Shown here: piece by piece, positions 5,422-32,781 of the stretch
How positions within the stretch are numbered: position 1 is the first letter of the stretch
Layout of the letters: the number at the start of each line of letters is the position of its first letter
DNA from: Candidatus Saccharimonadota bacterium
GTDB lineage: Bacteria > Patescibacteriota > Saccharimonadia > Saccharimonadales > DTSZ01
Length of the DNA stretch: 64,000 bases
Assembly (NCBI GenBank): GCA_012965045.1
Contig: DTSZ01000001.1
Span: 284,937-348,936 of the forward strand
Direction: 5' to 3'
The notes under the pieces: generated by a model
What the model was told of the DNA's origin: nothing
Databases searched by the model: none
Seen by the model: the letters and a program-made list of their open reading frames with translations, nothing else
Program-made: the position numbers and the translations under genes

Positions 5422-6261
5422 CTACCTCTTCCTCTTAGCCTGGTGGCGGTTACGTACAATAAATGCGTCAGAACTTTTTCGGCGACGTGTTTTGTAGCCA
5501 AGGGTTAATTGACCCCATGGAGTTTTTGGATCTCGTCCTGGGCCGTGACTACCACCGTCACCACCACCGTGCGGGTGATCTGCAGCGTTCATTACGACTC
5601 CTCGAACGCTTGGGCGCCATCCCATTCGTCGTCGACGACCGGCGCTACCCCATTTAATGTTCTGATGTTGTTCATTTCCAACGCTACCAATTGTAGCCAT
5701 GCAGCTAAGGTGGATTTTTCGGATTTCACTACTTGGTAGGCGCACTTGTGCGTATTCACCTTCTTTAGAAGTAAGCTGTGCACGATTACCCGCGCTGCGA
5801 ACAAGTTGTCCACCTTTACCTGGTTTCATTTCAATATTGTAAATAACGCTACCGGTTGGGATAGTTTTTAAAGTCATTCGGTTACCGGGTTCGATCGGTA
5901 CTTCTTCGCCGCTTTCAATCACCATACCCTTGTGCATTTGTGCTGAAGCAAGAATGTAGTGCAACTTGTCATTTTGGTCTTTAACTAAAGCAATGTTAGC
6001 TGAACGGTTAGGGTCATATTCAATAGCTTCAATTGTAGCTTTTGTTCCAGCTGGCAAGCCAAACGTGATGTGTCGGTAGTAGCGCTTTACACCAGAACCA
6101 CGGTGCCGAGTTGTTATACGACCTTGGTTGTTTCGTCCAGCGGTAGACTTTTTAATAGACGTTAGTGACTTGGTTGGTTTCTTTTTTGTGATTTGGTCAA
6201 AATCACGAGTAGTCATGCCGCGTCGGCCAGGAGTAGTTGCTTTATAGTTTTTTACAGCCAT
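5422..6261 (-). CDS. rplB: 50S ribosomal protein L2
   Basis: 279 aa. HPHGGGDG...KTRR, L2 family. Confidence 0.97.
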   Translation of the reverse strand: MAVKNYKATTPGRRGMTTRDFDQITKKKPTKSLTSIKKSTAGRNNQGRITTRHRGSGVKRYYRHITFGLPAGTKATIEAIEYDPNRSANIALVKDQNDKLHYILASAQMHKGMVIESGEEVPIEPGNRMTLKTIPTGSVIYNIEMKPGKGGQLVRSAGNRAQLTSKEGEYAQVRLPSSEIRKIHLSCMATIGSVGNEQHQNIKWGSAGRRRRMGWRPSVRGVVMNAADHPHGGGDGGSHGPGRDPKTPWGQLTLGYKTRRRKSSDAFIVRNRHQAKRKR

Positions 6262-30803: not shown

Positions 30804-31519
30804 GAAATCTTAACTAAGAAATTGTCTGACTCAGTCTGCGCCGCCATGATTGAGGCTATTAAATGATCGCTTTGCACCCACCTACGCTGTTCTTGATTTA
30901 CTGGCGGATCGGGATCAATGATAAGAAAATCTCCGTCTTTATAGCCAGTACAAGTAACCCCGTGGGTTAATGACCTTCCGCGTATTGGATCCGGCTGAAA
31001 TTTATCGGTTTCTTGATCGTAGAGTTGTTTGGATTCTTGATTCAAGTAGGTAGAGTTTAGAGTTACAAAAATGGGTGAATCTACAAGAAGACTATGGAGT
31101 AGTTTTGTGTTTAAATTCTGAAATTCGAACGAACCACCCTTGGCTACGTAGAGCTCCCAGCCATCGACCAAAACTTTATGGTATCTGCTCAACCATGAAT
31201 TTTCTGGTATGTGTCTTTGCCGTAGTTTTAAATTTTCAACTACCTCCTTAGCTGACAAACTACCCCACGATCTGTCGAAAAGTTCAGTATCGAAAATATA
31301 AGAAATTGTTCCGTAACCTTGTGCTGGAAAATAGGCAGCTAAGTGACCAGGCGATGTGCCTATTTTCTCACCGTTTTCTTCATAAACTGGTACTTCTTTA
31401 ATAACTTGATCTACTGTAATCTTTGGGTCGAAAAAAGATAATAATTGAGCAGCTGCTGTTTGCATACATTGTGCTGTATCTTGATGAATAGAGACTACTC
31501 TATGTTCTATAGCTTGCAT
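30797..31519 (-). CDS. Peptidase C39-like (papain-fold cysteine peptidase) family protein
   Basis: 240 aa. N-terminal Q...C pattern (HQDTAQCMQTAAAQLLSFF) and later THGVTCTGY...IIDPD match the Gln/Cys...His/Asp layout of C39-like domains. Confidence 0.7.
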   Translation of the reverse strand: MQAIEHRVVSIHQDTAQCMQTAAAQLLSFFDPKITVDQVIKEVPVYEENGEKIGTSPGHLAAYFPAQGYGTISYIFDTELFDRSWGSLSAKEVVENLKLRQRHIPENSWLSRYHKVLVDGWELYVAKGGSFEFQNLNTKLLHSLLVDSPIFVTLNSTYLNQESKQLYDQETDKFQPDPIRGRSLTHGVTCTGYKDGDFLIIDPDPPVNQEQRRWVQSDHLIASIMAAQTESDNFLVKISK

Positions 31520-31527
31520 GATTTTAT

Positions 31528-31535
31528 ATTATACA
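31528..31535 (-). promoter_or_regulatory. Extended -10 promoter TGTATAAT, 8 nt upstream of the C39-like gene ATG (leaderless candidate)
   Basis: Minus strand reads TGTATAAT-ataaaatc-ATG. Confidence 0.45.
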
Positions 31536-31564
31536 GACTACCATCCATACAGCAGTACTTACTT

Positions 31565-31776
31565 TGCTATATTAATGATTTCTAGTGGGCGAGCCTGCCT
31601 GCCGGTAGGCAGGAAAGGACCGTATTATTGTTTTGCTACTCGGCAACATTTGCTTCGCAAATGCTCGTTGGCCAAGCAAAGAAAATGTACCGGTACCATC
31701 AGGTACTGGTACGCCTCTCGGTTCAAGTCCTGACTCAGAATTAAAAAATGAACCTCATGAAGAAGCTCATTTTTTA
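31565..31776 (+). other. tRNA-fragment-containing structured segment A (possible plus-strand small RNA)
   Basis: Extended -10 TGCTATATT (31565-31573). Then GTGGGCGAG (the tRNA-Leu 5' end motif), three hairpins (31594-31613, 31646-31662, 31687-31712, the last with a G.U only on plus), GGTTCAAGTCC (a T-loop-like string), and an A-run/T-run hairpin at 31743-31776. Confidence 0.25.
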
Positions 31777-31893
31777 TGGTGGGCGAGATAGGACTTGGTC
31801 ACGTTCCGCGACCCCGAAAAAACATCTTTGGAAGCATAGCCTCCAAAGAGTTTATTTCCTTGCGCCATGCTGCCAGCATGGCTCACCTTCACG
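31777..31893 (-). repeat. tRNA-Leu-derived module B (T-arm/acceptor 3' end with CCA, interrupted by an ~89-nt structured insertion)
   Basis: Minus strand reads CGTGAAGGTGA, then the 19-nt hairpin at 31864-31882, GCAAGGAAA, a second hairpin, and TTTCGGGGTCGCGGAACGTGACCAAGTCC. It ends in TATCTCGCCCACCA. The last 22 nt match the tRNA-Leu 3' end at 21/22 positions. Confidence 0.5.
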
Positions 31894-31920
31894 AAGGTTC
31901 AAGACATACTTATCCTCACC

Positions 31921-31951
31921 AAATTAAAAAAGACCCATTTGGGTCATCTTT
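31921..31951 (-). terminator. Intrinsic terminator downstream of tRNA-Leu
   Basis: Minus strand reads GACCC-AAAT-GGGTC followed by TTTTTTAATTT, immediately after the tRNA CCA end. Confidence 0.6.
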
Positions 31952-31955
31952 AATT

Positions 31956-32040
31956 TGGTGGGCGAGAAAGGACTTGAACCTTCACGCCTTGCGGCACTAG
32001 TTCCTAAGACTAGCGTGTCTACCAATTCCACCACTCGCCC
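31956..32040 (-). tRNA. tRNA-Leu (anticodon UAG), type II with long variable arm, CCA encoded
   Basis: Hand-folded from GGGCGAG-TG-GTGGAATTGGTAGACAC-G-CTAGT-CTTAGGA-ACTAG-TGCCGCAAGGCGT-GAAGG-TTCAAGT-CCTTT-CTCGCCC-A-CCA. All four stems pair and the anticodon loop is CU-UAG-GA. Confidence 0.93.
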
Positions 32041-32079
32041 ACGATATAAATTTTTAAAGGTTCAAGAATAAATTATAAC

Positions 32080-32239
32080 GGACTTGGTCACCTTCGGCGA
32101 CCCCGAAACTTCGCGATTAAAAACTAGTTTTTATCGGAAGGTTTCCTTGCAAAGTGCCACTGGCACTTTTCACCTTCACGCTTGCGAGTAACAAATTCTA
32201 AAAGCTTGTACGTCAGCCAACTCCACTACTCGCCTACGC
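32080..32239 (-). repeat. tRNA-Leu-like module D (pseudo-tRNA 5' portion plus the same structured insertion, ~87 nt here), transcribed as a leader of tRNA-Leu
   Basis: Minus strand reads AGGCGAGTAGTGGAGTTGGCTGAC...GCGTGAAGG (a paralog of the tRNA-Leu 5' two-thirds). It continues with TGA, the hairpin at 32151-32169, GCAAGGAAA, a second hairpin, and TTTCGGGGTCGCCGAAGGTGACCAAGTCC. It lacks a 3' acceptor strand. Confidence 0.5.
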
Positions 32240-32246
32240 TCGCAAT

Positions 32247-32255
32247 ATATTATCA
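32247..32255 (-). promoter_or_regulatory. Extended -10 promoter TGATAATAT driving module D and tRNA-Leu
   Basis: Minus strand reads TGATAATAT, 7-11 nt upstream of the pseudo-tRNA 5' end. It lies just downstream of the rsmD stop codon (32260-32262). Confidence 0.4.
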
Positions 32256-32259
32256 GTTT

Positions 32260-32781
32260 TTAGTTTTTGAAAAAACTCAAAGTTGCATTGCCAAAGCGAT
32301 TTGATGAATCCTTTTTTAGTCCTTTTATTTTTAACTTGTCTTCCGTGCCATGAGAAAGCACAAACAAACCACCACCCTTCAAGTATTTAGCAAGCGTATT
32401 AAGCTGTTTTTCTGATATATGGTCATAGGGCGGGTCTGCAATAATTAAATCGAATTCTATGTGTTGTTGCTTTACCCAAATTGAACAGTTTGCACGAGAA
32501 ACTTCTACGGTTTCTTCAAGATCTAATTTGTCTCTGTTGTCCTTGAGCGTCTTAAAAACCTTCGGATCTCTTTCGATAGCATAAATTTTATGAGCACCGC
32601 GACTAGCTGCTTCAAATGATACCGCGCCGCTACCTGCATAGGCATCTAGCACAGTTAAGCCAGATACGTTCCCGAGTGAATTAAAAAGAGCGTTTCTGAT
32701 TTGTTGGCTCATAGGATGTGTTTTATAACTTGCCGGAGCATCAAAAAGTCTGCCGCCCAAATAGCCCCCGGCGATTCTCAT
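32260..32781 (-). CDS. rsmD: 16S rRNA (guanine966-N2)-methyltransferase RsmD family
   Basis: VLDAYAGSGAVSFEAASRGA (SAM-binding) and IIADPPYD motifs. The ATG at 32781 (MRIAGG...) forms an ATGA overlap with the upstream stop. Confidence 0.88.
   Translation of the reverse strand: MRIAGGYLGGRLFDAPASYKTHPMSQQIRNALFNSLGNVSGLTVLDAYAGSGAVSFEAASRGAHKIYAIERDPKVFKTLKDNRDKLDLEETVEVSRANCSIWVKQQHIEFDLIIADPPYDHISEKQLNTLAKYLKGGGLFVLSHGTEDKLKIKGLKKDSSNRFGNATLSFFKN

Follow-up and report, generated by a model that had tools for sequence, protein, structure and literature searches.

Locus organisation

The stretch analysed here (the window) comprises 64,000 nucleotides (nt) of contig DTSZ01000001.1 (assembly GCA_012965045.1, positions 284,937 to 348,936) from a Candidatus Saccharimonadota bacterium, and is a bacterial chromosome segment in which open reading frames (ORFs) of rpoB and rpoC size are present. 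Within the window, a 740-bp spacer between rsmD and a peptidase gene contains one real transfer RNA (tRNA) gene, tRNA-Leu(UAG), together with two copies of a core element, each lying in a partial copy of a tRNA. In all, three modules (D, B and type-2) surround this one working gene and occupy the spacer. The element is real and widespread, is strongly supported as structured, and resides in tRNA-fragment modules probably generated by recombination. The module locus is flanked by recG, an rsmD-like methyltransferase gene and hisS, and its neighbours in the window encode RsmD-like and C39-like proteins. Hydrothermal-vent metagenome contigs carry the identical 740-bp spacer, base for base; the nearest relatives of the window HisRS after an identical protein are 79% identical, and the next are <60% identical.

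An original prediction, made from the letters of the window, had placed a single intact tRNA-Leu(UAG) here, and the gene at 31956-32040 on the minus strand is indeed the only complete cloverleaf with both acceptor strands that ARAGORN and Rfam call in the 64 kb. The three conserved blocks of the predicted insertion all lie where they had been placed on the minus strand: CGTGAAGGTGA at 32170-32180 and 31883-31893, GCAAGGAAA at 32142-32150 and 31855-31863, and a 29-nt block, TTTCGGGGTCGC-S-GAA-S-GTGACCAAGTCC, which occurs twice in the window with 0 mismatches against an expectation of zero matches in 100 shuffles, even when 3 mismatches were allowed. Also present are the two 19-nt hairpins, which match in length but have unrelated sequences, the exchange of G-C for C-G in the pair that closes the GAA loop, and the G.U pair. 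The insertion is there, with its length corrected from ~87-89 nt to 85 nt in D and 87 nt in B as measured from after GGT to before CAAGTCC, and the near-identity of the 3´ part of B to the tRNA amounts to 20/21 positions from C56 to CCA rather than 21/22. Module D has the expected tRNA-like 5´ part (48/64 identical to the real tRNA) with an imperfect anticodon stem and no 3´ acceptor strand, whereas module B is without tRNA positions 1 to about 46. Upstream of D, the extended -10 that had been pointed out was found as TGATAATAT at 32247-32255 (minus strand), within a scored promoter-like site.

Further down, the third fragment (CTCGCCCAC, 31585-31593, minus strand) was found as described, although it is now seen as a diverged family member. 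The inverted T-loop strings exist as well; GGTTCAAGTCC lies on the plus strand at 31720-31730, one base off its predicted place, and a third string of this kind, AAGGTTCAAG, was found at 32057-32066, between D and the tRNA. The region had been described as free of credible ORFs. Four plus-strand ORFs of 52-74 aa do overlap it, yet they are judged not credible because they run antisense through the tRNA and the covarying hairpins. A 74-aa gene call in one public assembly, antisense over tRNA-Leu and module B (window 31776-32000, plus strand; 2520-2744 of locus L001, loci being designated by L numbers), is almost certainly spurious.

Neither D nor B is called as a tRNA, with or without an intron, by ARAGORN or Rfam, even at E <= 10. 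At the gathering threshold, Rfam finds nothing but tRNA in the window, and a cmscan of 31400-32400 at E <= 10 returned only tRNA and weak matches far below gathering scores, which were taken as noise.

A module family in Saccharibacteria

One genome per species was scanned with the pattern TTCGGGG-N5-GAA-N5-CCAAGTCC, in which the P5 stem was left free. The scan gave 49 loci, ~38 of which are Saccharibacteria/Saccharimonadales or unclassified metagenome-assembled genomes with the whole element; the remaining loci, in other phyla, were taken as chance matches. A search of relatives with a covariance model, as the original prediction had proposed, yielded further full copies with covariation: the model R1, built from 37 distinct copies, detects 43 full-length copies at E < 1e-10 in ~37 Saccharibacteria genomes, up to three per 8-kb locus, and also recovers copies that break the pattern (GGCGGGG, CGAGTCC and GGA loops). 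The partner tRNA genes are those for Lys, Leu (five anticodons), Ile, Val and Pro, so the family is not specific to tRNA-Leu as it had first been framed. All cores are co-oriented with the adjoining tRNA, and both copy number and partner tRNA differ between genomes.

The module family is Saccharibacteria-specific. In viral contigs, two stricter patterns gave 0 matches apart from one chance match in a high-GC coding region, and the family is accordingly not seen in IMG/VR; a loose gapped pattern (GAAGGTGA...GCAAGGAAA) matched >120 viral loci, which were judged to be chance from its low specificity. A literature search found no description of the element, which is apparently undescribed.

Fold and covariation of the core

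The core is ~85-90 nt long, and its tRNA-sense strand folds into three hairpins (P3, P4 and P5) off a junction; RNAalifold likewise returns a three-hairpin junction, closed by the T-stem. In the alignment of the 43 copies, 96.2% of cells are standard pairs and 32/37 pairs are changed on both sides. None of 500 shuffles reaches any of five measures computed on this alignment, and pairing falls to 29-46% when partners are slid by 1-3 columns. The selected, tRNA-linked structure that had been proposed from the window thus passed on 43 copies in ~37 genomes, and its three offered readings (RNA family, pseudo-tRNAs, integration scars) prove to be aspects of a single phenomenon, namely a structured family absent from Rfam, situated inside pseudo-tRNA fragments that are partial duplications, probably from recombination with the resident tRNA.

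The sequence of P3 varies almost freely across copies. P4 occurs in at least two sequence types, CCUUCCGAU.../...AUCG-U-GAAG and AAACUCUUG.../...CAAAGA-U-GUUU, both of which have the same bulged U, and its base covaries (GGAAA/UUUC, GAGAA/UUCU, GGCCA/UGGC). The P5 G.U pair is kept in 42/43 copies. The junction nucleotides UGA, (Y)GCAAGG, GG and CAAGU are near-invariant, in part because the search pattern imposes it, and CAAGTCC is invariant in the 43 aligned copies, most of which were first found by a pattern requiring CAAGTCC. A change of U54 to C accompanies that of GCAAGG to GAGGG in 4/4 type-1 cases (L132, L152, L163 and L166) and in 3/4 type-2 copies. This joint change (GGUGA...GCAAGG to GGCGA...GAGGG) suggests a tertiary pair of position 54 with the P3-P4 linker, although the four type-1 cases may be one clade. 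In the window, the P4 of module B followed by UGUUUUUUCG (31825-31849, minus strand) scores as intrinsic-terminator-like, and the U-rich P4 variant also occurs in L155 and L171.

The predicted site in the T-loop is correct, but the core is no plain insertion: the segment UGA...GUGAC takes the place of exactly two nucleotides, which are positions 54-55 in the T-loop copies, and the same holds for the two anticodon-loop contexts. Closure of the junction comes from an antisense strand, CUUGAACC, that pairs with the GGU ... CAAGUCC flanks. It consists of YUUGAACC plus an anti-T-stem extension and is the complement of the GGU^CAAG that surrounds the core. Most B-type copies have the strand 15-28 nt upstream of the core, where it forms hairpin P2 with the T-stem 5´ copy and helix P1 (GGGACUUG/CAAGUCCC) with the flank on the 3´ side; every T-loop D-type copy has it on the downstream side, 6-12 nt past CAAGUCC. 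The strand tracks the T-loop of its partner, since in L176 (T-loop TTCGAGT) CTCGAACC accompanies CGAGTCC. The minimum-energy folds of whole B modules are five-helix junctions with z-scores of -4.8 and -7.9. With the strand 5´ in B-type and 3´ in D-type, the two module types represent a single fold, circularly permuted, and the modelled folds give the inverted T-loop strings, which had been noted as mere strings, a role as its closing strand.

Module layouts and features of the window

B-type modules account for 28 copies with an adjoining tRNA (Lys-CTT, Leu-TAG/CAG/GAG/TAA/CAA, Ile and Val). Past the tRNA they have, in this order, a terminator hairpin, a short spacer, the antisense strand, the T-stem 5´ copy, the core and a tRNA copy from C56; in 24/28 the core starts 61-84 nt past the tRNA end. 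The 3´ repeat varies in length: ~12 copies have 7-18 nt, ~10 reach through CCA (21-23 nt) and 5 extend through the terminator (53-85 nt), with L144 left out owing to Ns in the assembly.

D-type modules occur in the window, at Leu-CAG (L133, L134, L151 and L157) and at Pro-UGG (L176). Reading in order from the promoter, they contain a tRNA copy (+1 to T54), the core, CAAGUCC with another 1-3 nt, a -10-like hexamer, the antisense strand, ~15-25 nt and the intact tRNA. The hexamer of T-loop D-type copies is TATAAT (perfect; window, L133 and L176), TACAAT or TATAAA, whereas L151 has a less good match, TTCAAT. The core lies in an anticodon-loop copy in two cases (L134 Leu-GAG and L173 Pro-CGG), and the downstream strand of L173 is complementary to the anticodon stem-loop. 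In genomes other than that of the window, the D-type 5´ part reproduces the downstream tRNA exactly or nearly so.

The third window module has homologues of the same layout in L172, L161 and L134: P1 5´ strand GGACUUG, ACC-GNRA-GG(C), GA-hairpin-GAGG, more hairpins, CAAGUCC and a tRNA 3´ tail. The tetraloops of the mini-stem are GNRA in 4/4 (GAGA, GAUA, GAUA and GAAA). R1 matches the L172 copy weakly (23 bits, E 4e-4) and the window copy not at all; we treat these type-2 units as a diverged subfamily. The window copy runs from P1 5´ strand GGACTTG through the mini-stem CC-GAGA-GG (GNRA loop), hairpins and GGTCC to a tRNA-Leu 3´-like, hairpin-interrupted tail. Module units measure ~150-250 bp, and ~650 bp around the window tRNA is taken up by modules. 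The features of the spacer are summarized in Table 1.

Table 1. Features of the tRNA-Leu(UAG) spacer, in window coordinates.
Feature	Position	Strand	Evidence
Promoter-like site, TTTTCA/TTCAAA ... TATATT, overlapping TGATAATAT (32247-32255)	32244-32273	-	Consensus scan
Module D, tRNA-derived 5´ part, ends in GGT	32172-32235	-	48/64 identical to tRNA-Leu positions 1-54
Module D, core, 85 nt, hairpins P3/P4/P5 on junction	32087-32171	-	R1 112 bits, E 2e-33
Module D, T-loop/T-stem remnant CAAGTCCGT, tRNA positions 56-64	32078-32086	-	Sequence
Perfect TATAAT hexamer directly 3´ of D	32072-32077	-	Sequence
Module D, antisense ('guide') strand CTTGAACCTT	32057-32066	-	Complementary to GGT^CAAG around core and to intact tRNA T-arm
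Intact tRNA-Leu(UAG) gene, CCA encoded	31956-32040	-	ARAGORN; Rfam RF00005, 58.4 bits
Terminator-like long hairpin T1, core GACCCAAATGGGTC then T-run	31917-31960	-	Terminator scan
Module B, antisense ('guide') strand GTCTTGAACCTTC	31893-31905	-	Equivalents form P1/P2 in other B-type minimum-energy folds
Module B, T-stem 5´ copy GTGAAGGT, tRNA positions about 47-54	31885-31892	-	Identical to tRNA
Module B, core, 87 nt	31798-31884	-	R1 106.3 bits, E 1e-31; single-sequence fold z-score -3.7
Module B, copy of tRNA positions 56-76, CAAGTCCTATCTCGCCCACCA	31777-31797	-	One mismatch in 21
A/U-rich terminator-like hairpin T2, 3´ of module B	31742-31775	-	Read from sequence
Type-2 module, third fragment plus inverted string, ends in CTCGCCCAC	31585-31730	-	Fold z-score -4.2

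The 5´ part of module D retains the acceptor 5´ strand, D-arm, a degenerate anticodon arm, the variable arm and the T-stem 5´ strand, and the predicted fold of this module pairs the downstream antisense strand with UGAAGGU. The promoter-like site upstream is probably the original tRNA promoter, now driving D, and it is plausible that D is a promoter-driven leader of the tRNA transcript, as had been suggested; the TATAAT after D could start the tRNA transcript at the antisense strand. Hairpin T1 pairs the CACCA of the tRNA with a downstream TTGGTG. T2 went unscored by the terminator scan, since the scan rule needs at least 3 G-C stem pairs.

The position of the core raises the question of an intron-like insert that is removed from T-loop RNA, with D and B joined into a functional tRNA. 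The core does lie precisely at loop positions within the tRNA copies, 6/7 pairs would be possible between AGGCGAG (acceptor 5´ strand, window D) and CTCGCCC of B, and Patescibacteria are known for tRNA-gene introns (PMC13011429). Yet 0/43 copies have both acceptor strands, so no copy is a complete interrupted tRNA, and an intact copy of the same tRNA stands beside every module (decayed in L186). The D parts decay, that of the window being 75% identical to the tRNA with an imperfect anticodon stem. Excision would moreover leave a 5-nt T-loop without U54/U55, Rfam gives no group I signal, and the core is far too small. The intron and split-tRNA readings are therefore largely refuted, and we give them hardly any probability.

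Probable recombination with tRNA genes and selection on the core

Several loci suggest that modules recombine with tRNA genes, and some combine sequence of different origin. The D-type 5´ part of L133 is an exact copy of the downstream tRNA from +1 to T54. The D copy of L134 has an acceptor stem (GCGGATG) foreign to the adjoining tRNA (GCGCGAG), the B tail of L135 derives from another tRNA than its neighbour, and L130 holds a fragment of another tRNA between the repeats. In L146, three different cores stand in tandem after one tRNA-Lys, one of them with a CGAGTCC flank foreign to the CAAGTCC tRNA; this array includes a 162-aa ORF of no known family (Pfam). The second stacked module of L146 (1228-2140) is broken inside P5 by ~700 bp that bear the 162-aa ORF, and L130 has a junction string like that of L146, GGGTCGTGCAG, behind a T-stem copy (about 4745); the P5 insertion may be the end of another element that targets module sites.

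Orthologous rsmD-hisS loci differ in what they hold: tRNA-Leu(UAG) only in L187, the tRNA and B in L188, a decayed tRNA and B in L186, and D, the tRNA, B and type-2 in the window. In L187 the tRNA-Leu(UAG) (6044-6129) lies on the opposite strand to rsmD, whereas in the window and L188 it lies on the same strand, which indicates that the locus was inverted or re-formed in one lineage. In L186 (4660-5120) the tRNA-Leu is decayed past ARAGORN recognition while the module (88 bits) has survived with a tRNA-Leu 3´ tail in good condition; at 3.3 kb from this module locus is a 527-aa gene of the resolvase family.

The core outlasts its flanks elsewhere, too. The tRNA part of window D has diverged to 75% identity next to a core that scores 112 bits, and ~12 B-type tails are decayed past CAAGTCC with their cores intact, which argues for selection on the core itself. 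The compensatory changes span genomes whose HisRS proteins are only about 50-60% identical.

These observations bear on whether the modules are inert att-site scars of ordinary integrative elements, conserved-looking only through recency. An intact tRNA followed by tandem directly repeated fragments is the classic footprint of such elements (PMC4383910; bioRxiv 10.1101/2020.12.28.424599), and a 4.1-kb serine-recombinase element adjoins one copy. Compensatory changes at 32/37 pairs over that divergence, however, contradict inert scars, and the core is kept while the adjoining tRNA-derived sequence decays. Essentially no island lies between the repeats (61-84 nt). The original prediction would have fallen had the repeats been att sites of a known element, but the recombinase in L169 crosses over elsewhere, at GACCA of the tRNA 3´ end. 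We consider inert scars extremely improbable.

A serine recombinase beside one module

L169 and L172 are contiguous pieces of contig CAYZZS010000016.1, where two copies of a 4101-bp unit, both with a B module at the end, stand in tandem behind tRNA-Pro. A large serine recombinase (Resolvase 1.7e-20, Recombinase 2e-8) is encoded in this unit; ORFs of 273 aa and 165 aa in it have no significant Pfam match (L169:1-8000, L172:1-260). The duplication may reflect a genuine tandem integration or arise from the assembly. Metagenome homologues of the recombinase element overlap tRNA-Pro 3´ ends, tRNA-less homologues keep only ...TCGACCA, and most homologues have no core nearby. In L169, an ordinary B module comes after the element's own right junction, which consists of GATTTCGACCA and then a terminator. 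The element was therefore rejected as an autonomous parent of the modules, having its own tRNA 3´-end site and mostly coreless homologues; judging from these junctions, it is probably nested beside the module by coincidence, with a tandem duplication added.

In one copy of the element (L169:33-1760, minus strand) the stop codon of the recombinase ORF is TCA of the tRNA T-loop read in antisense. In the other (L169:3936-5861, minus strand), at the tandem junction where the module replaces the tRNA body, the ORF is 66 codons longer and runs through the structured core, so that the C-terminus of the recombinase depends on the sequence across the junction. Three of five tRNA-Pro genes with a downstream recombinase element also have a duplicated tRNA 5´ part and a new promoter upstream; these loci, all on the minus strand, are L176:1300-1800 (T-loop core), L173:2130-2700 (anticodon-loop core) and L177:2040-2500 (coreless, tRNA 1-19 duplicated). 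No tyrosine recombinase is present among the ORFs examined. Ends like those of IS200/IS605 were ruled out by the freely varying sequence of P3.

A proposed mobile cassette with a structured core

With about equal measures of confidence and doubt, we favour the reading that the modules are small gene-less cassettes that arise by recombination with tRNA genes and carry a functional structured core, most likely RNA. A cassette would consist of the core in a split T-arm together with either the promoter and tRNA 5´ part or the tRNA 3´ part and terminator. It would recombine with a resident tRNA gene on whichever side has common sequence and give a D-type or B-type arrangement, always leaving one intact tRNA gene, after which the redundant tRNA fragment would decay. 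Cassettes would pile up in tandem and move between tRNA loci and genomes, and the core would be kept by selection, acting as RNA for the cassette's own maintenance or spread. Transcription of D-type cores would start from the displaced tRNA promoter, that of B-type cores would come from terminator read-through. Because the outer repeat boundary is variable (at the terminator end, or from +1), a Campbell-type insertion fits at least as well as a fixed site-specific crossover.

A number of observations weigh against this reading. Pfam searches of ORFs inside or beside module arrays link no recombinase to the modules, and no known chemistry of transposition or integration would account for two target nucleotides being lost each time. 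Copies linked to tRNA-Lys have common gene neighbours in four to five species-level genomes, so that copies can also persist long. Some copies in the sample came from a search pattern that fixes block 3, and this inflates the apparent invariance of that block. As to action as RNA, B-type modules lie between two terminator-like hairpins with no recognisable sigma-70 promoter, and would thus be expressed by read-through only; convincing promoters were sought before B modules and none was found. In P3/P4, G.U (10) is no commoner than A.C (12), hence these stems form equally on either strand or in DNA, and the hairpin loops are mostly 3-4 nt rather than classic stable RNA tetraloops.

In a rival reading, the core is a domesticated host noncoding RNA, vertically inherited and acting, for instance as a factor or a regulator, in tRNA transcription, processing or modification, with flank identity due to gene conversion between neighbouring repeats and not to mobility. 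The shared tRNA-Lys neighbourhood, in at least four to five species-level genomes, fits such an RNA, as do the recurrence of B modules linked to tRNA-Leu(UAG) (window, L188, L186, L126, L150, L152, L168 and L170), the tightly constrained core start, and the persistence of the core in tiny streamlined genomes even past tRNA decay (L186). The foreign flanks in L134, L135 and L130 do not, nor do the cores of different subtypes stacked at one tRNA (L146), the absence of the module at the orthologous locus L187, and the variation in copy number and partner tRNA between genomes. We regard a host RNA of this kind as unlikely.

RNA or DNA action of the core

Several features favour RNA: the P5 G.U pair, the GNRA caps in 4/4 type-2 units, a U.G wobble in P1 of the third L146 copy, and the co-orientation of cores with tRNAs. 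In D-type modules, a tRNA promoter precedes the core and an essential tRNA follows it; in the window, the promoter-like site is upstream of D.

The core could instead be a folded single-stranded DNA recombination site, like integron attC or CTX phage attP, in which the antisense strand and the split T-arm strand would anneal and rebuild a T-arm duplex for a recombinase supplied in trans. This would account for the lack of preference for G.U over A.C in P3/P4, the small hairpin loops, the conserved bulged base in P4, the transcriptional insulation of B-type copies by terminators, and the cassette-like tandem arrays, one of which bears a small ORF. The paired strands, as read from sequence, have an AAC/GTT core like attC R boxes. 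Saccharibacteria are naturally competent, and competence would supply single-stranded DNA. On the other hand, no integron-type or other recombinase was found beside any copy, GTTCAAG departs from the R-box consensus GTTRRRY, and the fold is a multi-hairpin junction instead of one imperfect hairpin. By our reasoning, a CTX-like exchange at a folded attP on the antisense strand would insert in the orientation opposite to the constant one observed, and this variant was rejected. The type-2 GNRA caps and the conserved G.U also favour RNA. A DNA site of this kind has a minor but appreciable chance of being correct; on sequence features, the core is more likely to act as RNA than as DNA.

An RNA could also be the mobile agent itself. 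The core would then be a catalytic or guide RNA that inserts into, or is cut from, exposed tRNA loops (T-loop, anticodon loop), either as a new self-cleaving/ligating ribozyme class or as an RNA with the antisense strand as its internal guide. D-type (5´ exon and core) and B-type (guide, core and 3´ exon) modules would be DNA fossils of half-reactions at the RNA level. This seems to us improbable; if true, the modules would be protein-independent mobile RNAs that target tRNAs in ultra-small bacteria.

Saccharibacteria have genomes of <1 Mb with little spare DNA, yet ~650 bp at one tRNA is given to modules whose core is kept by selection over deep divergence. If the core is an RNA, it represents a new, well-supported structured class: 32 of its pairs covary, few noncoding RNAs are known from this phylum, and the architecture is unusual in that a tRNA T-arm holds a junction which an antisense strand closes. 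Should the modules be mobile, they would constitute a minimal gene-less element that targets tRNA genes, which bears on the movement of DNA between episymbionts. At a practical level, the modules account for tRNA-like fragments and for spurious calls of small ORFs in assemblies of Saccharibacteria, probably also for breaks between contigs, and the R1 covariance model can be used to annotate them.

Comparison with known systems

Elements reportedly integrate at the T-loop, the anticodon loop and the 3´ end of tRNA genes (Williams, 2002), and these parts are involved in the modules as well. Integrative elements leave an intact tRNA and displaced direct-repeat fragments that stack outward (PMC4383910), and tandem accretion at tRNA genes is seen in the tycheposons of Prochlorococcus (bioRxiv 10.1101/2020.12.28.424599). 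The modules resemble Islander-type elements in that an intact tRNA stands beside directly repeated partial copies and the incoming DNA restores the gene, and they resemble tycheposons in that successive units stack outward from the tRNA. Direct repeats of tRNA fragments are found in both types (B-type from C56, 7-85 nt; D-type from +1 to T54). In contrast to integrative elements, the 61-84 nt between tRNA end and core in 24/28 copies hold no integrase and essentially no cargo, 5´-part and 3´-part duplications carry the same core, a covarying ~90-nt core sits at the junction, and every unit has an antisense T-arm copy.

With attC and CTX attP, the modules share structure kept over sequence, a strand-specific fold, annealing inverted half-sites that resemble the target duplex, a conserved bulged base and cassette-like arrays. 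They differ in that no link to IntI or Xer was found, and in having a multi-hairpin junction, a tRNA-loop target and an orientation unfit for CTX-type exchange. The paired strands (CTTGAAC / GTTCAAG) share only AAC/GTT with attC, and the fold is a five-helix junction.

Small self-cleaving ribozymes (hammerhead, twister, hatchet and pistol) occur with mobile elements and in integrase neighbourhoods. The core is like them in size range, in its variable helices around a multi-helix junction with ~20 near-invariant nucleotides, and in its position at mobile-element boundaries, but it matches no Rfam ribozyme family in sequence or structure.

Group I introns interrupt bacterial tRNA genes, including those of Patescibacteria (PMC13011429), and so are likewise structured RNAs in a tRNA loop in the same phylum. 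The core differs in its length (85-90 nt vs >200 nt), in lying mostly in the T-loop instead of the anticodon loop, and in residing in a partial pseudo-tRNA beside an intact gene where such introns sit in an otherwise complete tRNA; for the group I catalytic core (P3-P9), the Rfam cmscan of 31400-32400 gave no Intron_gpI match.

Miniature inverted-repeat transposable elements (MITEs) and cis-mobilizable elements (CIMEs), the latter att-flanked elements without recombination genes (PMC5704250), are comparable to the modules in being short, gene-less and multi-copy, with stable secondary structure, and presumably moved in trans or passively. The modules have none of the terminal inverted repeats of MITEs, as the core starts with (U)GA... 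and ends with ...GUGAC, and two nucleotides are lost at the target with no target-site duplication. What further sets the modules apart is that their flanks are tRNA-derived and that their junction nucleotides are conserved as in a functional RNA.

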